DNA of 64,000 nt from Phormidesmis sp. (GCA_965248535.1 CBDFJR010000005.1:2387867-2451866), one strand, 5' to 3'. Shown: positions 32,968-43,375, counted from the stretch's first letter. The notes: generated from the sequence alone by a model not told the origin. Translations and numbers: made by a program.

Positions 32968-34824
32968 TTAGGCGCGATAGGGCTGGGCTTGAAGTTCAAA
33001 TAACTCGGCATAGAGACCCTGATGCCGCATTAGATCTGGGTGGGTGCCGCTTTCTACAATGCGTCCTTGATCCATCACATAAATGCGATCGGCCATTTTC
33101 ACCGTCGATAAGCGGTGGCTGATCAAAATCGCCGATCGCCCTTTAATCAACTGTCTAAAATTCTCATAGACCACCTCCTCAGCTTTGGCATCTAGGGCAC
33201 TGGTCGGTTCGTCGAGCACGACCAGTTGCGAATTGCGTAGAAACGCCCGCGCCAGCGCAATTTTTTGCCACTGTCCTCCACTCAATTCTTCCCCTTGGTG
33301 AAACGATCGCCCTAGCCAAGTCTCGTAGCCATCGGGCAGGGTTTGAATCACCGCATCGGCACCAGAGGCTTTAGCGGCTAACTGAACCTGCGGATCTTGA
33401 GGTGGCAACTCCACATTTCCTAGCCAAATATTGGTGTGGGCAGTGAGGTCATAGCGCACATAGTCCTGAAAGACGACACTGACCTGGCGACGCAAATCGG
33501 CGATTTGGAAGTTGCGGACATCGATTCCATCCCAGGTAATCTGTCCGGCGGTCGGTTCATATAAGCGGCAGAGTAGCTTGATCAGCGTCGTTTTGCCGGA
33601 GCCGTTTTCGCCGACGAGTGCCACCACTTCTCCGGGGCGAATGACTAAATCAATGCCTTGCACTGCCTGCCGTTGGCTGTGAGCATATTGAAAATCAACT
33701 TGATGAAACACAATACCCTGCTGCATGGGTTGCGGCACGGGCCGGGGCTGAACCGGATCAGGAAGCTTGGTTTCTAGATCGAAAAACTCATTGAGGTTGC
33801 ACAGATACAGATAGTTTTCGTGCATACTAGACAGCCCGCCGAGTAAGGCTTGCAGCGAGCCTTTACCGCGCTGTAGAGCTTGATGATACAACACGAGATC
33901 ACCCAGTTTTAGCGCGCCATTGACTGCTTGTAGAATAATGAAGCTGTAGAGTGCCAGCATCAATATCGCCCCGATCGCTTGGACACCGATGTAGACTAAA
34001 GCCTGTTGCCGATCGATCGCGAGTTTTTCTCGATGCAACTGTTTTTGCAATCGCAAGACCCATTCGGTAAAGTAGGGCCCCAAATTGAATAAGCGCAGTT
34101 CTTTGGCAAAGCCTGCCGAGGCGACAATGCTTCCTAAATAGCTGATTTGTCGGTGCATTTGGGTGCTGCGGCGCTCCCATTCATAGCCGATTTTGCCGTA
34201 TTTAAACTGGGCAAGGAGGGTGGGCAGCGTGGTTAAAACCAAGGCCGGTAGCGTCACCCAGTGAATCGTGACGAGTAGCCCGATCATGGTGATCAGCGAT
34301 AGCCCATTTTGCACCAAGGCGGTGGCGGTATACATCACATGGGTGGGGCGTTGCACCTCCCGCTGGGCGCGTTGCAGAATATTGTAGTATTCTGTGTTTT
34401 CGTAGCATTCAATATCGACGGCGATCGCTTTGGCATAGAAGCGTGCCTGCATATATTCGGTGAGTTTGAGTCCTTGCGCTTGGGTCACCCAGTTGTCGAA
34501 GGAAGAGCACAAGAGGTTTAACAGTAAGCACCCCCCCGCCAGTCCGAAGAGTATGGCCAGTTGGGGCATGATGGTGGCCCGATGTGCTGCATCCATGTCT
34601 GTTTTGATGCTGATGGTGAGCACATCGACGACCCATTTGTTCACATAGAGGCTGGCGAGGGAGAGTCCGCTTTGAAGCAGCAGTAAACTCACATGGATGA
34701 CTGTCCATTTAGGACTGCTCTGCCAGACCAATTTTAGGGCAGACAGCGATCGTATGCTGTGGCTTATTTGGCGAGAGAATTGTTTTAGACTACGAATAAA
34801 CCAACGATTCACGGGCTTAATCAC
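32968..34824 (-). CDS. ABC exporter (TMD+NBD), probable peptide exporter
   Basis: GENGSGKTT, LSGGQWQKIALAR and DEPTS motifs; AKELRLF; N-terminal TMD; no C39 peptidase domain seen. Confidence 0.9.
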   Translation of the reverse strand: MIKPVNRWFIRSLKQFSRQISHSIRSLSALKLVWQSSPKWTVIHVSLLLLQSGLSLASLYVNKWVVDVLTISIKTDMDAAHRATIMPQLAILFGLAGGCLLLNLLCSSFDNWVTQAQGLKLTEYMQARFYAKAIAVDIECYENTEYYNILQRAQREVQRPTHVMYTATALVQNGLSLITMIGLLVTIHWVTLPALVLTTLPTLLAQFKYGKIGYEWERRSTQMHRQISYLGSIVASAGFAKELRLFNLGPYFTEWVLRLQKQLHREKLAIDRQQALVYIGVQAIGAILMLALYSFIILQAVNGALKLGDLVLYHQALQRGKGSLQALLGGLSSMHENYLYLCNLNEFFDLETKLPDPVQPRPVPQPMQQGIVFHQVDFQYAHSQRQAVQGIDLVIRPGEVVALVGENGSGKTTLIKLLCRLYEPTAGQITWDGIDVRNFQIADLRRQVSVVFQDYVRYDLTAHTNIWLGNVELPPQDPQVQLAAKASGADAVIQTLPDGYETWLGRSFHQGEELSGGQWQKIALARAFLRNSQLVVLDEPTSALDAKAEEVVYENFRQLIKGRSAILISHRLSTVKMADRIYVMDQGRIVESGTHPDLMRHQGLYAELFELQAQPYRA

Positions 34825-34874
34825 TCACAATATCTGACGAGACTAAAAGAATGGTCGCAATAGACGCTCGATGT

Positions 34875-35849
34875 TCACGACGCAGAGAGTGACAAAGCAG
34901 AGTCTATGGGGAATAGTGTGGAAGCATGGGGCGGTTCGAGCAGCGATCGCAACCCTTGATCGAGCGACCAGCGGGGGCGAAAATTCAACGTCGATCGCGC
35001 TAGAACAATGTTGGCTTGGGAGTGTTGAATATCGCCAGGGCGACGGGCTGCAAATCGAATCGGACTCATTTCACCGGGATGGTTAGCGCGCAGGCATTCC
35101 AGCAATTGCAGCAGTGAAATCGCTACACCCGTGCCAATATTGCAAACTAAAGAGGTGCCAGCAGCGCGATCGATTTCCAACGCTTGCACAAATGCTTGGG
35201 CCACATCTTTTACGTAGATAAAATCGCGGGTTTGTGAGCCATCGCCGTAAATCGTAATCGGTAACCCCTGACTCAGCGCCTGAGAAAATCGCGAAATCAC
35301 CCCAGAATAAGCCGAATTTGGCGCTTGACGCGGGCCAAAAACATTAAAGAGCCGCAGACCGACAAAGGCAAATCCGAGCCGATCGGCATACAAGCTGGCG
35401 TAGTGCTCACTGGTTAGTTTTTGTAAGCCATAGGGTGAAATCGGTGTGGTTAAATTGTCTTCTGCGATCAGCCTTGTGGATAAGTTTCCATAAACTGCCG
35501 CTGAACTTGTAAACACCAGCTTAGGAATCGACAGCGCTTGACACAAGCTGATCACCGCGATCGTGGCTGATAGATTATTGTGATGGGTGTGAATCGGATC
35601 TGACCAAGATTCACCGACAGATGGCGTTGCAGCTAGATGGGCTATGCCATCGACTGGACTCAAAAAATCTTCTGGTTGGCAATGCTGAATCTCTTTTTGG
35701 AGCACCGACAATGAGGGATGCCGGGGCAAATGCTTTAGCGTTCCTGTGCGTAAATTGTCCACAACGGTGACACAGTGCCCTTGGGCTAATAGCGCTTCGG
35801 TTAAGTGGGAACCAATAAATCCGGCTCCTCCAGTGACGATGATGTGCAT
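34875..35849 (-). CDS. NAD-dependent NDP-sugar epimerase/dehydratase
   Basis: TGGAGFIGSHL, YGLQK (YxxxK), FNVFGPRQ and GDGSQTRDF motifs. Confidence 0.92.
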   Translation of the reverse strand: MHIIVTGGAGFIGSHLTEALLAQGHCVTVVDNLRTGTLKHLPRHPSLSVLQKEIQHCQPEDFLSPVDGIAHLAATPSVGESWSDPIHTHHNNLSATIAVISLCQALSIPKLVFTSSAAVYGNLSTRLIAEDNLTTPISPYGLQKLTSEHYASLYADRLGFAFVGLRLFNVFGPRQAPNSAYSGVISRFSQALSQGLPITIYGDGSQTRDFIYVKDVAQAFVQALEIDRAAGTSLVCNIGTGVAISLLQLLECLRANHPGEMSPIRFAARRPGDIQHSQANIVLARSTLNFRPRWSLDQGLRSLLEPPHASTLFPIDSALSLSAS

Positions 35850-35867
35850 TTGGCTCTGTTCCAGTGC

Positions 35868-36926
35868 TTAAACGGTGAGGGATAGCAGCGAGTTTTGGGA
35901 AGATAGGATCTGATGACTGAGAGATGCCAAGTCATCGGTGATGAGTGTGCAAAGCTGATCTAATTGCTGTAGATCATCAGGACGAGAGAGCAACCGGATC
36001 GGGATAGTTTGCGCGATCGCTGCCAATTCCTGTAGCTCCTGCTGCTGCTGGAGGGGCATGAGAATATCTCGCCCGTAGCTGTGCACTAAAAGATGCTGGA
36101 GGGAGGCGATCGCCGAGAGAGGTTGAACGATCGCGCTGTCACGAGAGGCTTCTCGCGGTTGCAGCACATAAATCGCCGCTAAAGGTAGAGAATGCTCGAC
36201 AAACCGTTGAGGTAAGCGATCGTGCTCTGGCTGCAACTCAAAAAAGCATTTATCTAAGCGGCTAAACACCCGCGTGAGCGGTGCAATCGGAACCGTCAGC
36301 GCCTGGAGTGAAGGCTGCCACAGTCGCAGTGCTGGGTAGCCCGGTTGCACCCAAATCTGATCCTTGATGCTGTGCAGAGCGGCAATATCATCGGTCAGGG
36401 CCGCATATCCGCGCATCGCTAAAGCGGCGGCGGTGGTCGATTTGCCTGCACCAGATGCTCCGATTAGCGCGATCGCTTGTCCCTGAATTTTGACGACGCT
36501 GGCGTGTAAACAGAGTGTTCCTCGCAGCCGCAGCACATGCCCCAGCACGCCACCGAGCAGCATTGAAACGGCATCCTGAAACAGGTGTTCTGCTGACCAA
36601 AAGCCCCAAACTCGATCGCCTGTCGGATGAATCACAAATTCCAGAACGTCATCGTGCTCGACCGATCGCAGCCGCCAATAGGTGCCCTCTGCGGTCTCGG
36701 TTTGCCAGAGACAAAAGCCTGCCTGCTGTTCATCTGCTGTTGTTACTTGCCAAAACCGATGCTCTAGCAGGGGATGATCTAGCGTGGGTGCGCCAACAAA
36801 TTCTACTGTCACCGTTGACGTTTTAGACGGCAGTGAATGGGTGGGTGTTAAACCGGGGAGGAATCGATTGGAGACTAGGCTCAAACCATAGACGGTATAG
36901 CAAGAATTGTCCTCTAGATTCTGCAT
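35868..36926 (-). CDS. HPr-kinase-like serine kinase (lasso-cluster type)
   Basis: LHAS, GASGAGKST P-loop and LTDD motifs; likely start ATG 36926. Confidence 0.85.
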   Translation of the reverse strand: MQNLEDNSCYTVYGLSLVSNRFLPGLTPTHSLPSKTSTVTVEFVGAPTLDHPLLEHRFWQVTTADEQQAGFCLWQTETAEGTYWRLRSVEHDDVLEFVIHPTGDRVWGFWSAEHLFQDAVSMLLGGVLGHVLRLRGTLCLHASVVKIQGQAIALIGASGAGKSTTAAALAMRGYAALTDDIAALHSIKDQIWVQPGYPALRLWQPSLQALTVPIAPLTRVFSRLDKCFFELQPEHDRLPQRFVEHSLPLAAIYVLQPREASRDSAIVQPLSAIASLQHLLVHSYGRDILMPLQQQQELQELAAIAQTIPIRLLSRPDDLQQLDQLCTLITDDLASLSHQILSSQNSLLSLTV

Positions 36927-37050
36927 TGGCAATTCAACAGTAGATAAACATAAAATCGGCAGTTTGCTGCAACATAGGTGAGCGATCGTTTCAGGCGATC
37001 GCTCACCTATTCTCAAACTTGGCTCAATCTATAATCAAGCTCGACTAAGC

Positions 37051-37227
37051 TCACGTCGTCGAGGGGAAGGTGGTATTTGTGGTACTGTTAGTAGTCCCGA
37101 CCGTAGGACTCATACCTGTCGTCATGGGACTACCACTGCCCCCGCCGCTTTGGGTCAGTCCAGCGATCGTGCCATGGGCCTCGAACACTGGTGATTCGTA
37201 GTCTTTTTGATGATCATTCATAGTCAT
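37051..37227 (-). CDS. RiPP precursor peptide with lasso-type leader (58 aa)
   Basis: MTMNDHQKDYESPVFEAHGTIAGLTQ|SGGGSGSPMTTGMSPTVGTTNSTTNTTFPSTT; YxxP..G..T(-2) leader; AAGGAG RBS; not in the ORF track. Confidence 0.88.
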   Translation of the reverse strand: MTMNDHQKDYESPVFEAHGTIAGLTQSGGGSGSPMTTGMSPTVGTTNSTTNTTFPSTT

Positions 37228-37339
37228 GAACTCCTTTGTTGGGTAAATAGTGTGAGCAGATGCACCCTGAAACTTTTAGCTGAGAACAAATGAAGCGGTT
37301 CTTTCCCATAACATTAGGATGTGGGTCAAGTGACTGATC

Positions 37340-38542
37340 TCAGGCGGTTAAACTCAATGATTTATCGGCATGGCCGCGCTGTTTGATTTGACAAAGCCGA
37401 TCGCAGGCGTTGAGAAAAAGCTGCTTAAATCGCGATTCATCAAACTGATCGACCATCAGTTGGCGGGCTTGTGCGAGATGGTCGCGTCGCGCTTCGGGTG
37501 GTTGGTTTACCACTTGCACGATCGCTGCTGCCAATGCTTCTGGATTCTCCGGCGGCGCTAAGGTGCAGACCTCCGGCACAAACGTACCATGATAGGCTTT
37601 TAAATCGACACTAATCACCTCACACTCACAGGCGATCGCTTCAATCAACGTCGAGGGAAAGGCATCGGTGTAGGGATAGCTGATCACCACATCCGACAGG
37701 TTATAAATAGTTGGCATCCAGAGATGGGGAAAGTAAGGTAAAAATCGGAGGCGATCGGTGAGTTGGTATTCCTCGGCTCGCGCTTCAATTCGATTTCTCA
37801 TCTCTTGTTGTTCTTTCTGAGGGGCGCGCCCCATCACCAAAAAAACCATTGCTGTAGGTTTTGTTAGCTGGGGATAGGCTAACTGATAGGCATGAAAGAT
37901 ATCATCATGTTTGTAGAGCGCTGCCCAACCACGTGGCGACATAATCACCGTAGTCTCTTCGGGGAGCCGCAACACATCGCGTTTCCACTGTGCCACATTG
38001 CGGGTAGTGCCCCGGCAAAATAGCTGGGTTTTGGTGCCGATCGGAATCAGTTCAACCCGACCATCAGCAGGCATCAAGGCTTGCGCTGGCTCCAGTAGCT
38101 GCGGGGTTTCCACAATCAAGGTATCTGTATTTGCAAGCACAAATTCTGCTAACTCGCTCTGTTCCCTATTGATCTGATTTAGGAGCATATAATTCAGAAA
38201 CCCCCAAGCGGATACAACGAGCGGTCGCACCCCCGCTAAGACACAACTGCGAGCGTGCCAATTGATCGCATTGACATGCACCACATCGGGCTGGAACTCG
38301 TCGAACAATGCTCGAATGCGCGGTGCCATGTCGATCGCCATCTGATGGTCATCAAAGGTGCCACCGGGATTATCATCGTTTTCTAAGTGCCACTGACTCG
38401 GAACATAGCGGTAATTTGCGGGGGGATTGCCTTCATAAAAATCTGCATCGCCCAGCAGACAGACGTGATGCCCAGCCTCAATGAGCCAACGCAGGGGACG
38501 CTCTGCCGCAGTGCCCCCACAGGAAACAACTAGAATTCGCAT
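37340..38542 (-). CDS. GT4-like (GT-B) glycosyltransferase
   Basis: PDVVHV, SPRG and DAFPSTLIEAIAC motifs. Confidence 0.85.
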   Translation of the reverse strand: MRILVVSCGGTAAERPLRWLIEAGHHVCLLGDADFYEGNPPANYRYVPSQWHLENDDNPGGTFDDHQMAIDMAPRIRALFDEFQPDVVHVNAINWHARSCVLAGVRPLVVSAWGFLNYMLLNQINREQSELAEFVLANTDTLIVETPQLLEPAQALMPADGRVELIPIGTKTQLFCRGTTRNVAQWKRDVLRLPEETTVIMSPRGWAALYKHDDIFHAYQLAYPQLTKPTAMVFLVMGRAPQKEQQEMRNRIEARAEEYQLTDRLRFLPYFPHLWMPTIYNLSDVVISYPYTDAFPSTLIEAIACECEVISVDLKAYHGTFVPEVCTLAPPENPEALAAAIVQVVNQPPEARRDHLAQARQLMVDQFDESRFKQLFLNACDRLCQIKQRGHADKSLSLTA

Positions 38543-38594
38543 GGGATTAGTCCTGACTATAAATCTCACTAGCGCGGATAGAGTTCACGCCTGC

Positions 38595-38918
38595 TTAAAT
38601 ACTGTTGTCTTCAGTGCTGTGGAGTTCGACAACGCCCGCTTCTAGCCATTGGGTGACTAAGCTCATCAAGTCTGCCTGTAGGCGCTCTGGCTCTACTGCA
38701 TACTCTTCTAACAATGTTTTGTAGGCAGATTCGATCGAGGCTGCTTGAGTGAGCGCAGAGAGCATCTGGGTCGCGATCGTGTTTTGGCTAAAGTAAACTT
38801 CAGTGGTCATATTCAACAATGCCGATTCGCCCGACATATCTTGTATCAAAACCTGGGGAGACAAGACTATTTTTTGAGCGGATGAGATTTGCGGTGCCAG
38901 GGAATCAGTACTCAACAT
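38595..38918 (-). CDS. PqqD-family RiPP recognition element (lasso B1)
   Basis: GESALLN..YFSQN..EYAVEPERLQADL..LEAGVV pattern. Confidence 0.88.
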   Translation of the reverse strand: MLSTDSLAPQISSAQKIVLSPQVLIQDMSGESALLNMTTEVYFSQNTIATQMLSALTQAASIESAYKTLLEEYAVEPERLQADLMSLVTQWLEAGVVELHSTEDNSI

Positions 38919-39270
38919 AATGTAGTCAACGAAGTCGATAGTGATCTATATCTAAGCTCTTCAGGGAGTTTAACAGTCATCCGACAGTGAGGTTCTAAGG
39001 TTTACGGAAATTAGTTATTTCTCTATGAAGTTTAAAGTCTTATCTTCTGTTTGAGCGATTTCTGGTCTTGTGAGGTATACATGAACACTGCGGTTCTGTT
39101 GCACAAACATGGCTACTTAGGTTACGCCGCAGGGATAATCGGGGTTTCCTAAGAGCTTATATGAACGTATCTAAAACATTTGGCCCTTGCTTTTTAAAGA
39201 TAGACAATGTGATTGTGACAGATGATCGAGTTGTCTCAGGCAATGGAGGTGAAAATTTGTGAGTGTTCAG

Positions 39271-39753
39271 TTACGAGAGTGATTTAGAAAAGGCGCTAAA
39301 CTGTTGATGGACATCAGGGCGATCGTTCAACACTAGCTCCTCATACTCGATCCAGGCGTGGGCACAAAATGTTCCGTGTTCTCGCTGCACCCCAATTCGC
39401 ACAGTTGTTTTGACCCCCTGACAGCGGAGCAAAAACCAGAGCACCAGCGATCGTTTTAAGCAGTTACCCCAAATGCTCGATCGGGCGGCTAGATTCACGA
39501 TTTGAGCGATGTGCTGCAACTGAGATAACTCGGTTGGCGGTCTAATAGGGCATCGTGCCGTCAGCCAATCGAGCCAGCATTGCGTCTGCTGCAACCCTCT
39601 GAGAGATAAACAGCACGACACGATCGGCAACAACAAAAAGGCTTGCAAAAAGAGCGTGCGATCGCATGGAGGAAGCGCCATCCAGAGGTGTCCTTTACGA
39701 AAAAGTCGCTGCATGGGAATCATGACAAAGAGGTTGCTGAAACGATCAAACAT
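39271..39753 (-). CDS. Lasso B2 transglutaminase-like leader peptidase
   Basis: NCLKRSLVLW..IGV..AHAWIE..LND with Cys/His catalytic residues. Confidence 0.92.
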   Translation of the reverse strand: MFDRFSNLFVMIPMQRLFRKGHLWMALPPCDRTLFLQAFLLLPIVSCCLSLRGLQQTQCWLDWLTARCPIRPPTELSQLQHIAQIVNLAARSSIWGNCLKRSLVLWFLLRCQGVKTTVRIGVQREHGTFCAHAWIEYEELVLNDRPDVHQQFSAFSKSLS

Positions 39754-39860
39754 TGACTTGTTTATTGTACAATATTTTGCGTAAATATCCGGATCGATTC
39801 AGCGATCTGAAGTAATACAGATCACTACCTTAACAGTTGCTCTTTCAGGGTTTCAATTTG

Positions 39861-41072
39861 ATGGATCTTTCTTCTTTGACTCAAGGCTGTAGTGCTGAAG
39901 CTAATTTCTTGCTTGCCTGTGTCCGGCTCTATTGCAGACCCTCAGGCGCAGCAGAGATGAGATTGAATCTCGATGCTGTGAATTGGTCAAAACTGATCGA
40001 AATCGCCCACTTCAACAGCGTCATCCCGATTTTGCACAACAGTTTGAACGCGATCGCATCTCCCCATGTTCCCCCCGATATACTCACTGATCTTTCTGAA
40101 GCAACTCGTGCAAACAGCCACCTCAATCTGCTGCGTGCTAAAGAACTGCTCTGCCTGGTAGCGTGCCTAAAAAAACAAGGTATTGATGTCATTCCTTTTA
40201 AAGGACTGGTCTTAGCAGAAGTTGCTCATGGCAATTTAGCGATGCGGCAATTTGGCGATTTGGATTTGTTAGTTCGTGATCAAGATTTTTGGCAAGCAAA
40301 GGCTGCTTTAATGGCTCAGGGATATTGCACCGAAACAACCGCGATCGAAGAAGCGATCGGCTTTCGGCGCTACTGTCAAATTTCTTTGTCTAACTCAGCC
40401 CGATCGAGCAGTTTAGATCTGCACTGGGGCATTCCACCCCGGCGATTTTGGCATCGCGATCGCACCCCCACTCTTTGGCAAAATTTGCAGACCCGATCGC
40501 TAGCAGGACAGACCATTCAAACCTTTTCGATCGAGGTGATGTTAGTCATCCAAGCTATTAATGCGGTCAAAGAACCCCAGCGGCGGCCGGCTCTAAAACA
40601 GGTTTGTGATTTAGCAAAACTGATTCACGCTTACCCAACCTTAGATTGGGAGCGAGTCTGGGAGATAGCAGGTGAACTCCGGGTTCAGACACTGTTGCTG
40701 ATTAGTCTCAGTCTGGTACATCAACTCCTACAAGTGTCTCTTCCTAAAGAGATTCAAGCTGAAATTGCCAAAAATAAACGCATAGAAGCGATCGCCCGCC
40801 GAGTCAATCAACAAGTTGTTGCCAAAATCGATACGCCATCTGAGAGTTGTGACCGATGGTGGTCAGAATATTGGTATCAGCTTAAAACCCTCGATCGAGG
40901 CTGGCATGGGGGAGTGATGATCTTACAAGAGTTGGGCATCAGGCTGATCGAGATTGGCAGGCGGATGACTCCTAATGAGCACGATTTACAGATGGTATCT
41001 CTGCCCGCTTCTCTGCATTTTGTCTACTACTTTTTGCGCGTTTTGAGAGTGGCGAGTAAATATCTCTCTTAG
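39861..41072 (+). CDS. Nucleotidyltransferase family protein (NTP_transf_5 type)
   Basis: PFKG..R.FGDLDLLV..LDLHW pattern, as found in lasso clusters. Confidence 0.85.
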   Translation: MDLSSLTQGCSAEANFLLACVRLYCRPSGAAEMRLNLDAVNWSKLIEIAHFNSVIPILHNSLNAIASPHVPPDILTDLSEATRANSHLNLLRAKELLCLVACLKKQGIDVIPFKGLVLAEVAHGNLAMRQFGDLDLLVRDQDFWQAKAALMAQGYCTETTAIEEAIGFRRYCQISLSNSARSSSLDLHWGIPPRRFWHRDRTPTLWQNLQTRSLAGQTIQTFSIEVMLVIQAINAVKEPQRRPALKQVCDLAKLIHAYPTLDWERVWEIAGELRVQTLLLISLSLVHQLLQVSLPKEIQAEIAKNKRIEAIARRVNQQVVAKIDTPSESCDRWWSEYWYQLKTLDRGWHGGVMILQELGIRLIEIGRRMTPNEHDLQMVSLPASLHFVYYFLRVLRVASKYLS

Positions 41073-41249
41073 CTTCCTACGGGCTTTTTTGGCACAATCA
41101 GGGGCTGTGTCGCCCATTATGAATACAGGAAAAAAGTTCAGCATTTGGACATCCTGCTCTTGACGACTATTGAGATTGAGTAGACTTTACGATCGTGCCA
41201 TTCCCAATGTACTAATCTGGAGATCACAACGTCCTTATCTGTTCGGCTC

Positions 41250-42577: not shown

Positions 42578-43375
42578 ATGTTTGATAACATCTGCAAATT
42601 TCTTGCCGAAACCTTCTCGGCTGATTTCGCCACTTGGCTGCTGGGCGAACCTATTGAGCTAACTGAACTCAGCCCGTCAGAACTCTCACTCGAACCGATC
42701 CGCGCCGACGCGCTAATTTTGCTGCAATCTGACGAAGTGGTTTTGCATTTAGAGTTTCAGTCGCAGCCTAAAGCTGATATCCCGTTTCGGATGGTAGATT
42801 ATCGGCTGAGAGTCCATCGTCGCTTTCCCAAAAAGCAGATGCGCCAAGCCGTGATTTATCTACAGTTCACTAAGTCTGATCTCGTGCAGCAAAGCGCGTT
42901 TACCTTGGAAAAAACTCGCCATGAGTTTGAGGTGATCCGACTCTGGGAGCAGCCAACGAGTGCCTTTCTGCAATCTCCAGGCTTGCTTCCTTTTGCAGTT
43001 TTAAGTCAGGCAAGCAATCGGACTCAAACGCTCCGGCATGTAGCTCAAATCATTGATCAAATGCCTGACCCACGGGCACAAAGTAATGTTTTGGCATCGA
43101 CCTTTGTTCTGGCTGGTTTAGTATTGGAATCAGAGGTCGTTCAGCAAGTGTTGCGGAGAGACATTATGCAAGAGTCAGTCACTTATCAGCTTATTAAGTC
43201 AGAGGGTCGGGAAGAGGGTCGGGAAGAGGGTCGGGAAGAGGCGAGACAAGAGACTTTGCGACAGATTGTTGCGAATCTGTCGAGAGAAGGAATGTCTTCT
43301 GATGCGATCGCTCGAATTACGGGCTTGACGATCGAGCAACTTCAGCAGATTCAAACGGCGATCGACCCATCATAA
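42578..43375 (+). CDS. Rpn/PD-(D/E)XK nuclease-family protein
   Basis: IRADALI..LHLEFQ, MQESVTYQ and EGREEGREE tail. Confidence 0.8.
   Translation: MFDNICKFLAETFSADFATWLLGEPIELTELSPSELSLEPIRADALILLQSDEVVLHLEFQSQPKADIPFRMVDYRLRVHRRFPKKQMRQAVIYLQFTKSDLVQQSAFTLEKTRHEFEVIRLWEQPTSAFLQSPGLLPFAVLSQASNRTQTLRHVAQIIDQMPDPRAQSNVLASTFVLAGLVLESEVVQQVLRRDIMQESVTYQLIKSEGREEGREEGREEARQETLRQIVANLSREGMSSDAIARITGLTIEQLQQIQTAIDPS

Follow-up and report, generated by a model that had tools for sequence, protein, structure and literature searches.

A cyclase-less, lasso-related RiPP cluster in Phormidesmis sp.: a candidate pathway for a linear phospho-glycopeptide

Composition of the gene cluster

Positions 32968–41072 of the window (the whole 64-kb stretch of DNA that was analysed) hold eight uninterrupted ORFs (Table 1). 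The flanking ORFs are of the response regulator/hybrid kinase and proA-like types, in agreement with the predicted position between a two-component operon and proA. Families were assigned from Pfam and NCBIfam profile scores relative to the cut-off of each model; the eight contiguous genes of the original prediction were all recovered with matches of the expected kinds, some of them below cut-off.

Table 1. Features of the cluster, in window coordinates
Feature	Position	Strand	Remarks
ABC exporter, MsbA-like, 618 aa	32968..34824	-	permease + ATPase, without peptidase domain; Pfam ABC_tran 9e-34, ABC_membrane
NAD-dependent NDP-sugar epimerase, GalE-like, 324 aa	34875..35849	-	Pfam Epimerase 2.1e-55
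HprK-like peptide kinase, longest ORF 382 aa	35868..37016	-	Hpr_kinase_C 4.9e-07, HprK_rel_A 2.4e-10 (NCBIfam)
Precursor peptide, 58 aa	37051..37227	-	lasso-type leader + 32-aa Ser/Thr-rich core
GT4-family (GT-B) glycosyltransferase, ORF 409 aa	37340..38569	-	Pfam Glycos_transf_1 1.8e-16, Glyco_trans_4_4
PqqD-like RRE (B1), 107 aa	38595..38918	-	Pfam PqqD 3.4e-10
352-bp PqqD-B2 gap	38919..39270		without convincing ORF
B2 leader peptidase, lasso-type, transglutaminase-like Cys protease, 160 aa	39271..39753	-	NF033537, Transglut_core3 2.2e-21
Nucleotidyltransferase (NTase), PsmN/LppN-type (NTP_transf_5), 411 aa	39837..41072	+	PF14907 3.4e-52; divergent from B2

The B2 protein is of the lasso type: it reaches 80.4 bits on NF033537 (lasso_biosyn_B2; cut-off 33), and its Cys98, His132 and Asp144 are invariant in the B2 alignment. 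The PqqD-like protein scores 40.5 bits on the Pfam PqqD model, above the cut-off, and 36.9 and 35.7 bits on the NCBIfam lasso PqqD models, both under their cut-offs. The epimerase remains under the cut-off of the galE model TIGR01179 (188.6 bits, cut-off 262). The Hpr_kinase_C match of the kinase is weak (29.9 bits, below the Pfam gathering score of 33.3); in this protein no column with 90% conservation or more among 58 lasso-type kinases is altered, H171, D210 and the K192-containing GxGKST loop being among those retained. The nucleotidyltransferase translation shows a GDLDLL metal-binding-like motif. The true starts of two genes probably lie inside the longest ORF: the kinase may start at M31 (position 36926, 352 aa), because it aligns there with its orthologues, and the GT4 at M10, which would give the 400 aa of the database copy P0002.

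In canonical relatives the gene order is PqqD-B2-cyclase-precursor-HprK-ABC. The GT4 gene of the window sits between PqqD and the precursor, where the related lasso clusters have the cyclase. The gap between PqqD and B2 probably marks a past rearrangement, and the PqqD...ABC operon may have its promoter there; a promoter scan gave nothing above chance.

Precursor peptide

The precursor probably starts at its second ATG (M3), giving 56 aa, because the database copy P0001 has this length and an AAGGAG stands 9 nt upstream of this codon. Its leader ends in ...DYESPVFEAHGTIAGLTQ. As in lasso systems with a discrete RRE, it carries YxxP and a Thr at -2, and from YESPVF to GLTQ it can be aligned to 45 leaders of the canonical type; these 45 precursors and the 20 precursors of the orthologous clusters described below have YxxPxF, HG and Thr at -2 in common with it. 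On the NF033528 (lasso_cyano) model the leader obtains 17.2 bits, under the cut-off of 33. The core that follows ...GLTQ, SGGGSGSPMTTGMSPTVGTTNSTTNTTFPSTT, opens with SGGGSGSPMTT... and ends in Thr; Ser and Thr make up 17 of its 32 residues, and Asp or Glu none, so that the acceptor-free core of the original prediction stands. The Asp/Glu acceptor of lasso peptides at core position 7-9 is also missing in the allele of a second strain. A search of the whole genome for a second lasso-type leader ORF returned none, leaving this precursor as the only one.

Absence of a lasso cyclase

The Asn-synthase-like macrolactam cyclase (C protein) that characterizes lasso clusters is absent from the window, as had been predicted: a whole-genome profile search with PF00733 (Asn_synthase) gave five matches, none of them inside the window, and no cyclase remnant was detectable when 15 cyanobacterial lasso cyclases were compared with the 64 kb by tblastn (best E 0.30). 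Another contig carries two Asn-synthase paralogues, separated by 400 kb. On the lasso-cyclase model NF033535 they reach 53 and 115 bits, far below its cut-off of 525, and both score higher with the generic asparagine synthase model; one is split into two overlapping ORFs. No B1, B2, precursor or other RiPP genes were found beside them. In a relative, the paralogue pair flanks a PLP-dependent decarboxylase, and across the genus its presence does not follow that of the cluster. Elsewhere in the genome there is no further B1, B2, HprK or NTase gene; each occurs once (for PqqD, one of the cluster's type). The genome-wide check for a cognate cyclase or a canonical precursor outside the locus thus came back empty.

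Orthologous clusters in other cyanobacteria

Among loci found through B2, the cyclase is mostly kept, being full-length in 52 of 97 distinct loci. A different picture emerges for the true orthologues, identified via GT4, HprK, PqqD and epimerase (48-64% identity). In a phylum-wide sample of 400 other genomes, 5 have a GT4 orthologue; in one cyanobacterial family, 19 of 301 genomes (11 of 68 genera) do. The orthologues share ~50% identity and always follow a PqqD gene and precede precursor genes. Group A is the name used here for clusters without cyclase in which PqqD directly precedes an orthologous GT4 and the precursor(s) and HprK orthologue come next. Of 22 GT4 loci examined, 10 are full clusters with a common gene set, but all comparative counts are inflated by kinship because these 10 clusters are 84-88% identical in GT4. 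They come from seven genera, all in a cyanobacterial family other than the host's, and have the order PqqD-GT4-precursor(s)-HprK-GT2-(epimerase)-B2-ABC-NTase. No Asn-synthase-like ORF was found within ±10 kb in any of the 10.

The predicted link between cyclase absence and acceptor-free cores is borne out in group A. Its 20 precursors, present in one to four copies per cluster and with hypervariable C-termini, have a common leader, ...YSEPELKAHGKISGLTQ, and a core start, xVGGSGGFxTT; Asp or Glu is found in core positions 1-16, which include the ring positions, in 0 of 20 and is absent altogether from 11 of 20. In the precursors of B2-centred, mostly cyclase-bearing loci, by contrast, the first Asp/Glu stands at or before position 12 in 45 of 45. 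Among the Ser residues, Ser5 alone is present in every one of the 21 cores (20 from group A and that of the window).

The window has the PqqD-GT4-precursor-HprK arrangement of group A in matching order and strand, likewise without cyclase, and its proteins are 63-64% (epimerase), 49-54% (PqqD), ~50% (GT4), 48% (kinase) and 49-53% (ABC) identical to those of group A. The kinase tree joins the window kinase and the 10 of group A in a single clade (SH-aLRT 99), which is nested in a 96-supported clade with kinases of cyclase-bearing cyanobacterial lasso clusters. The window differs from group A in several respects: it has one precursor rather than one to four and no GT2, its core start shares only the GG-S-G and TT parts of the group A motif, and B2 and NTase are relocated, B2 being upstream rather than downstream of the epimerase. 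Its B2 shares 42-50% identity with that of cyclase-bearing clusters and only 23-26% with that of group A, in which the third catalytic residue varies (D, N, K or H); the NTase is 28-33% identical to those of canonical and group A clusters alike. Since the core differs, GT2 is absent, and B2 is both dissimilar and upstream, the window cluster is, by sequence comparison, a divergent, chimeric relative of group A.

A sister architecture, group B, has the order PqqD-GT4-Thr-rich precursor-TPR-GT2-GT2-GT4 and lacks kinase, peptidase and exporter. Decay is frequent in the family: of the full clusters, L160 has its ABC gene split and its epimerase reduced to a stump, as is the epimerase of L157; L165 and L159 retain PqqD-GT4 alone (L159 with a degenerate leader), and in L172, L175 and L176 the GT4 is split or interrupted by stops.

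Strain variation and distribution near the host

In contigs of the second strain (run X2), the seven enzyme/transporter genes differ at 15 sites, of which 11 are synonymous and 4 non-synonymous (dN/dS ~0.11; binomial p = 7e-5 against a neutral expectation of 76% non-synonymous); the ABC exporter gene contributes four synonymous and no non-synonymous differences. The precursor has three differences, all of them non-synonymous and confined to the core's variable part; none introduces Asp/Glu. The purifying selection on the enzymes speaks against decay. None of the seven other species of the genus was found to have the cluster (kinase in 0 of 7; GT4 only as paralogues at ≤28% identity), and DNA-level matches in 30 genomes of the family are confined to the flanking genes.

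A possible pathway and alternative explanations

The favoured reading, to which a probability of roughly two in three is assigned, is that of a functional RiPP operon that descends from a lasso pathway with phosphorylation, of the paeninodin/pseudomycoidin-like kind, and would have lost the macrolactam cyclase, gained sugar chemistry and now make a linear phospho-glycopeptide. As part of this whole reading, and with the same confidence, B2 would stem from a cyclase-bearing lasso lineage, whereas PqqD, GT4, kinase, epimerase and ABC would be those of group A. By homology, the genes could act in the following manner. The PqqD-like RRE would bind the 56-58-aa precursor via the YxxPxF leader motif. 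The HprK-like kinase may then (poly)phosphorylate a Ser on the still-linear peptide; HprK-like kinases act on linear precursors, ahead of leader removal (PMC9266682). The site may be core Ser5, the one invariant Ser of the cores, which is only a guess because the core ends in Thr, and Thr at its site is not accepted by LppK (PMC13381572); paeninodin-type kinases use a C-terminal Ser (PMC9266682). The PsmN-like nucleotidyltransferase would put a hexose on the phosphate, a reaction for which PsmN is required (PMC6993621), and GT4, supplied by the epimerase, may glycosylate the phosphosugar or the Thr/Ser-rich tract. B2, with its Cys98/His132/Asp144 triad, presumably cleaves after ...GLTQ, and the MsbA-like ABC pump would export the linear, un-lassoed phospho-glycopeptide.

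It is improbable that the locus is instead a dead remnant, that is, a phosphorylated-lasso cluster that recently lost its cyclase, acquired unrelated sugar genes and makes no product, its acceptor-free core being due to drift. Loss of the cyclase is not rare: of the 97 distinct B2-centred loci, 14 with 5 kb or more of sequence on either side lack a cyclase, and five have only a short cyclase ORF (e.g., L116, L118 and L120, one acidobacterial lineage). The absence from congeners, the rearrangements of the window (the 352-bp gap, the moved B2 and NTase) and the visible decay of several group A relatives point in the same direction. Against this stand the intact state of all eight ORFs, the excess of synonymous changes in the enzyme genes, the retained catalytic residues of B2 and kinase, the placement of GT4 and epimerase within the operon, 18-112 bp from the adjoining genes, and a cyclase-less gene set with an acceptor-free core motif kept in 10 clusters of seven genera. 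The predicted repurposing into a pathway for a linear, modified Ser/Thr peptide draws its support from these clusters and from the selection on the enzymes.

A role of the same enzymology in making a glycosylated/phosphorylated primer or anchor for sheath or exopolysaccharide, with the leader removed or not, is equally doubtful. The cores are Thr/Ser-rich and mucin-like, the family has at least two glycosyltransferases and an epimerase, group B manages without kinase, peptidase and exporter, and the authors of the work on related peptides of Bacillota report co-location with capsule loci and speculate on biofilm (PMC13381572, in the part of the text available). However, the window and group A alike have kept a leader peptidase and a dedicated ABC exporter, genes for a polysaccharide polymerase, flippase or chain-length control are absent from the cluster, and several precursor copies with hypervariable C-termini are typical of secreted RiPPs. 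Least probable is cyclization in trans, in which an orphan Asn-synthase-like protein encoded elsewhere in the genome closes a ring via an unusual acceptor. Both paralogue ORF translations lack the initial Met-Cys of glutamine-dependent enzymes and one partly matches the cyanobacterial lasso-cyclase model (the 115 bits given above), but the core offers no carboxylate side chain for adenylation, and their generic profile scores, the broken ORF, the remote position without adjoining RiPP genes, the decarboxylase neighbourhood and the independent distribution in the genus all count against them.

Relation to known systems

The closest known system is that of the linear polyphosphorylated peptides (LPPs) of Bacillota (Popov et al., Nat Commun 2026, May; PMC13381572): expression of cyclase-less RRE + HprK + NTase + ABC clusters yielded linear polyphosphorylated peptides, which their authors term linear analogues of phosphorylated lasso peptides. 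The novelty implied by the original prediction was therefore too high. Like those clusters, the window combines a stand-alone RRE with a kinase of the HprK-like type, an NTP transferase (PF14907) and an ABC protein resembling MsbA, without cyclase; LPP leaders likewise carry YxxPx[L/V/F], their N-terminal region is conserved and the C-terminus variable, and sugar genes are often around. LPPs are further marked by a polyphosphorylated Ser close to the N-terminus of their linear core; in this respect the invariant Ser5 of the 21 cores is no more than suggestive. According to the available part of the same source, LPPs are confined to Bacillota, whereas the host of the window is cyanobacterial, and they use a SpI-like (SipW-type) peptidase, LppS, where the window uses B2; among the eight cluster proteins, no signal-peptidase family match was found with Pfam or NCBIfam. 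Of the LPP leader consensus described there, YxxPxVLxHQxIxFETxxS, the window has only YxxPx[F], the rest being that of cyanobacterial lasso leaders (HG.I..LTQ). Neither the core motif GGSGGFxTT nor the leader tail HG..GLTQ (Thr at -2) matches the LPP consensus, both being lasso-like, and GT4 (in the family also GT2 and epimerase) is fixed in the operon, between RRE and precursor. Because its kinase clade nests among cyanobacterial lasso kinases, sequence evidence suggests that the cyanobacterial family arose independently of LPPs. Group A and the window represent a conserved, hitherto undescribed family whose products are probably linear peptides decorated with sugar and phosphate.

Paeninodin/pseudomycoidin-type clusters share B1, B2, HprK kinase, PsmN-type NTase and ABC exporter with the window; as far as they are described in the available parts of PMC9266682 and PMC6993621, their phosphosite is a C-terminal Ser, and they possess both a cyclase and an Asp/Glu acceptor; the window has none of the three. 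Glycocins and other glycosylated RiPPs are also ribosomal peptides glycosylated as linear precursors, but the glycocin enzymes are GT2-type S/O-glycosyltransferases acting on Cys, Ser or Thr of helical bacteriocins; in the available part of PMC11912497 no RRE, B2 or kinase accompanies them, whereas the window pairs GT4 with a discrete RRE. A mirror case, compared by the description in PMC6993621 only, is Stanieria cyanosphaera PCC 7437, whose cyanobacterial lasso-type cluster likewise has a PsmK-like kinase and a recognisable glycosyltransferase; there, it is the B proteins that are missing, whereas a cyclase is encoded.

Gene content and precursor

The eight-gene cluster predicted at 32968-41072 was borne out: window translation yields eight ORFs, all uninterrupted, with Pfam/NCBIfam assignments as tabulated. 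B2, the leader peptidase, clearly passes the NCBIfam B2 model (80.4 bits, cut-off 33) and retains Cys98, His132 and Asp144 in the alignment. The kinase matches its Pfam model weakly (29.9 bits, short of the cut-off). Among 58 aligned lasso-type kinases, however, it has kept every column with 90% or more conservation, H171, the GxGKST loop and D210 among them. The sugar genes lie within the operon, because the spacers from PqqD to the ABC exporter measure just 18-112 bp, counted on the longest ORFs. GC content is flat (0.48-0.52 over 30-44 kb), base composition giving no signal of a foreign island, and scans for promoters and terminators gave fewer hits than shuffled sequence did. PDB sequence searches returned a single match for GT4 (6kih_A, 'Tll1590 protein', 4e-18), which we take to be sucrose-phosphate synthase, P-loop-level matches and nothing else for the kinase, and zero matches for the nucleotidyltransferase (NTase). 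Past proA lies a 265-aa ORF (42578-43375) with close paralogues in other parts of the genome, such as a 249-aa ORF with a near-identical start on another contig, C2 (1341011-1341760); the cluster thus seems to be flanked by a repeated and possibly mobile gene family.

Features of the window cluster in transcription order from B2, followed by the divergent NTase; identities are to the orthologous cyclase-less clusters (group A, see below)
Feature	Position	Strand	Assignment	Identity to group A
B2 peptidase (first in transcription order)	39753-39271	minus	Pfam/NCBIfam	23-26%
Gap, 352 bp	between B2 and PqqD-like RRE			
PqqD-like RRE (B1)	38918-38595	minus	Pfam/NCBIfam	49-54%
GT4 glycosyltransferase	38569-37340	minus	Pfam/NCBIfam	50%
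Precursor, 58 aa	37227-37051	minus		
HprK-like kinase	37016-35868	minus	Pfam/NCBIfam	48%
NDP-sugar epimerase	35849-34875	minus	Pfam/NCBIfam	63-64%
MsbA-like ABC exporter	34824-32968	minus	Pfam/NCBIfam	49-53%
NTP_transf_5 nucleotidyltransferase (divergent from B2)	39837-41072	plus		

The precursor has a lasso-type leader, DYESPVFEAHGTIAGLTQ, in which YxxPxF is the RRE-binding motif and Thr stands at -2; against the NCBIfam model of cyanobacterial lasso precursors it scores a sub-threshold 17.2 bits. As originally predicted, the core is free of acceptors: its 32 residues, SGGGSGSPMTTGMSPTVGTTNSTTNTTFPSTT, include 17 Ser/Thr and no Asp/Glu, and the C-terminal residue is not Ser. The predicted absence of a cyclase from the window likewise held, PF00733 matching five places in the 5.03-Mb genome but none in the window, and tblastn with 15 cyanobacterial lasso cyclases giving a best E of 0.30 over the 64 kb. 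Because the two defining features, cyclase and acceptor, were both sought and are both lacking, this is not a lasso cluster.

A cognate cyclase or a canonical precursor elsewhere in the genome would undercut the prediction, and neither was found. The genome holds two Asn-synthase-like paralogues, both on C2 (1349684-1351519 and 944890-946597) and without an N-terminal Cys start; one is 611 aa long, the other split into overlapping ORFs of 453 and 129 aa. Both score highest on the generic asparagine synthase model and reach 53 and 115 bits on the cyanobacterial lasso-cyclase model (cut-off 525), and the genes around them are unrelated. In a relative of the same family (G294, L147:7257-13251) the pair lies 3 kb apart, flanking a PLP-dependent decarboxylase; across the genus the paralogues are patchy, and their distribution does not track the cluster. 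They are not lasso-associated. A motif scan of all small ORFs found exactly one lasso-type leader, that in the window, and phmmer found one each of the kinase, PqqD of the cluster type, B2 and the NTase in the genome. A word-based search of 5.8 billion proteins with the precursor returned only itself, the group A precursors being too divergent or uncalled as genes.

Relatives centred on B2

In a phylum-wide sample of 400 other genomes, 17 have B2, and 19 loci were fetched from these; 80 further loci came from a genome-contig scan with a B2 alignment, and the combined sets comprise 97 distinct loci. A full-length Asn-synthase-like ORF is present in 52 of these, counting L073, whose 'cyclase' is an NTase-like ORF matching only part of two cyclases. 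Five loci have a short cyclase ORF alone, 14 have none despite at least 5 kb on each side, and 26 have none but lie on short contigs. These loci typically read PqqD-B2-cyclase-precursor(s)-HprK-ABC(-NTase). Asp/Glu is present in each of the 45 precursors with a leader; counted from a guessed cleavage site that may be a few residues out, the first such residue never lies beyond core position 12, and in 31 precursors it falls at 7-9. Within the genus the cluster is confined to one species, being absent from all seven others, and 30 genomes of its family gave DNA-level matches to the flanking genes only. Judged from the B2 loci alone, the window cluster thus looked like a singleton beside many decayed clusters.

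In one acidobacterial lineage (L085, L087, L092, L093, L096, L112 and L115 versus L116, L118 and L120), sister genomes carry the full PqqD-B2-cyclase-precursor-HprK-NTase set, a truncated cyclase stump or bare PqqD-B2, which is a decay series for lasso clusters. Cyanobacterial B2::NTP_transf_5 fusions of 558-579 aa (L088:9983-11722, L090:10001-11677, L125:2217-3902, L145:1539-3260) adjoin an ABC exporter, in L088 and L090 also an HprK-like kinase, and have no cyclase inside the fetched DNA; L090 retains a lasso-like precursor whose core has Asp at positions 7 and 9. L073 (10001-15334) and L072/L029 combine a B2-NTase pair with a gene for a Nif11-like 75-aa peptide and an ABC exporter, without cyclase; the L073 NTase ORF (537 aa) matches part of two lasso cyclases (about 1e-33), which points to a domain that is shared or fused. 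In L035 (15193-17285), a cyclase-bearing cluster from a different cyanobacterial class, a GT4 lies directly 3' of HprK; it is 24% identical to the window GT4, and both have an unusual TD(A/G)xPxT..EA in place of the first Glu of EX7E.

A cyclase-less cyanobacterial family

A protein search with GT4 brought up homologues with identities of 84%, 59% and about 50%, the last under the names Nostoc, Cylindrospermum, Anabaena, Leptolyngbya and Pannus. Scanning close-relative contigs with GT4 alone, which requires near-identical 8-mers, gave nothing, and a two-sequence GT alignment recovered two distant GTs from metagenome contigs, neither with RiPP neighbours. GT4 orthologues are present in 5 of the 400 genomes of the phylum sample and in 19 of 301 genomes (11 of 68 genera) of one cyanobacterial family. 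Twenty-two GT4-centred loci were fetched, among them ten full clusters from seven genera (group A: L155-158, L160-164, L166), with the order PqqD-GT4-precursor(1-4 copies)-HprK-GT2-(epimerase)-B2-ABC-NTase on one strand. The 20 precursors encoded there have a common leader, MSQSEN.KKNYSEPELKAHGKISGLTQ (22-26 bits against lasso_cyano), and cores that start with xVGGSGGFxTT and continue in variable Thr/Pro-rich tails. The expected co-occurrence of cyclase absence with Asp/Glu-free cores was found here: none of the ten clusters, which are close kin and represent few independent observations, has an Asn-synthase-like ORF within ±10 kb, and none of the 20 precursors has Asp/Glu in core positions 1-16, 11 being wholly free of both. 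An unrelated insertion of GT4 and epimerase into the window cluster was considered and rejected, as both keep the same positions in the orthologous clusters.

The window B2 is 42-50% identical to B2 of cyclase-bearing clusters, the window NTase is equidistant from group A and cyclase-bearing clusters (28-33%), and the group A GT2 is missing. The window cluster is therefore a divergent, chimeric member of this family, in which the PqqD-GT4-precursor-kinase-epimerase-ABC block is joined to an upstream B2 of canonical lasso lineage. In two group A genomes B2 is confined to the group A cluster; two others hold additional ordinary lasso clusters. The third catalytic residue of B2 varies in group A, and decay is frequent in the family (a split ABC gene, epimerase stumps, PqqD-GT4-only remnants, GT4 pseudogenes).

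In a quick-mode IQ-TREE analysis of 58 kinases, the window kinase and the ten from group A fall into a single clade (SH-aLRT 99), nested in a group with support 96 that also contains kinases of cyclase-bearing cyanobacterial clusters and sits amid kinases from cyclase-bearing clusters of other phyla. The simplest reading of this tree, which is unrooted so that the direction of change is inferred, is that the cyclase-less family arose once, from among the lasso-associated kinases.

Whether the window cluster itself is decaying can be judged from strain variation. Logan contigs of four public runs contain the stretch; one is essentially identical, two (X3, X4) hold small near-identical fragments only, and one (X2) represents a variant strain, covered by its contigs from 34586 to 41229 with all differences listed. 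Across the seven genes for enzymes and transporter, 11 of 15 differences are synonymous and 4 non-synonymous (dN/dS about 0.11; binomial p = 7e-5 with 76% of sites non-synonymous, or 2e-4 if one unlisted ABC-region difference is taken as non-synonymous). The precursor differs at three positions, all non-synonymous (P41T, V43F, N47H) and all in the variable part of the core, none creating an acceptor; three differences in 177 nt compare with 0.37 expected (Poisson p = 0.006). Constrained enzymes with a fast-changing core are the usual RiPP signature, and the pattern is unlike that of a dead locus.

Relation to known systems and proposed mechanism

The idea of a lasso module repurposed without its cyclase is right in substance; it is less unprecedented than the original prediction assumed, since linear polyphosphorylated peptides (LPPs) were described in May 2026 (PMC13381572). 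The window cluster would work like an LPP cluster; it falls outside the LPPs by its leader peptidase (B2 versus SpI-like), leader consensus and phylum, LPPs being confined to Bacillota according to that paper. Literature searches turned up no paper on the cyanobacterial family, and the term 'Linear polyphosphorylated' in this one paper only; its supplementary cluster lists, obtained through the SpI peptidase, are unlikely to contain clusters of B2 type. A 2019 study (PMC6993621) merely remarks on a Stanieria cluster that has cyclase, kinase and glycosyltransferase, without B genes. According to the RRE-Finder paper, peptidase and cyclase are missing for about half of the lasso-type discrete RREs (roughly 8,000 in all), and RRE-glycosyltransferase fusions are mentioned there. 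The window cluster opens onto a conserved, so far undescribed cyanobacterial family.

HprK-type kinases phosphorylate the linear precursor ahead of leader removal, polyphosphorylation being possible (PMC9266682), and hexose on phosphate requires PsmN-type NTases (PMC6993621). When RRE, kinase, peptidase, ABC and NTase of the Bacillota LPP system were expressed, the product was a linear core, freed of its leader and bearing 1-4 phosphates on Ser3 (PMC13381572). By analogy with these phosphorylated-lasso and LPP systems, we propose that the window cluster could act in the following manner: The RRE would bind the leader, and the kinase would phosphorylate a Ser, at a weak guess Ser5, the only Ser invariant across all 21 cores (window and group A). 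The NTase may then put a sugar on the phosphate, and GT4, fed by the epimerase, may extend the phosphosugar and/or glycosylate the Thr/Ser tract. B2 would cleave after GLTQ, and the ABC pump would export the product. A complex prediction for GT4 and PqqD scored 0.12 against a mark of 0.32, which is evidence neither way. Serine-rich repeat adhesins of Gram-positive cocci are O-glycosylated by GT4-type enzymes and would be a precedent for GT4 acting on a Ser/Thr-rich polypeptide.

If the product is confirmed, lasso machinery would have become a maker of linear phosphorylated peptides at least twice, with the leader peptidase swapped in Bacillota, and with B2 kept and a glycosyltransferase in the cyclase slot in cyanobacteria. 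The latter would then be a defined and fairly widespread family (GT4 orthologues in 19/301 sampled genomes of one cyanobacterial family), offering a testable pairing of RRE and GT-B enzyme and, in the conserved GGSGGFxTT motif, a candidate modification site. Lasso rules that demand B2 plus cyclase presumably miss such clusters; in genome mining, B1/B2 clusters without cyclase should not be dropped as broken lasso clusters before core and orthologues have been checked.

A sister architecture without kinase

Seven loci (group B: L167-L171, L173, L174; for example L167:9033-16465) have the order PqqD-GT4-Thr-rich precursor with a YxxPEL leader, their GT4 being about 41-43% identical to that of the window. 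The precursor is conserved (45-50 aa), with a leader ...KKTYTTPELTLRG and a Thr-rich core ending ...TTTA. Downstream lies a 750-aa TPR-GT2 fusion, in at least L167, L168 and L173, where the contig extends, followed in contigs long enough (L167, L170) by a GT2 and a 756-aa GT4. Kinase, B2/peptidase, ABC exporter and NTase are all absent from these loci; group B is a candidate RRE-guided glycopeptide pathway. Because PqqD-GT4-precursor is the conserved core here too, a direct partnership of RRE and GT4 is supported. Tentatively, at odds of about one in three, the triad may define a new cyanobacterial class of RRE-guided, O-glycosylated, Thr/Ser-rich 'mucin-like' peptides, derived from lasso machinery independently of the Bacillota LPPs and comprising two branches: group A and the window cluster would have added kinase, NTase, B2 and exporter to make secreted linear phospho-glycopeptides, and group B would use glycosyltransferases alone. 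If so, the discrete PqqD would be the first demonstrated case of a stand-alone RRE that serves a GT-B glycosyltransferase.

Adjoining group B (L170:13304-14021 and L167:603-854) are several small ORFs with double-glycine-type leaders (...ATVSGG) and Thr-rich cores, one of which contains 11 consecutive Thr; these peptides may be further glycosylation substrates.
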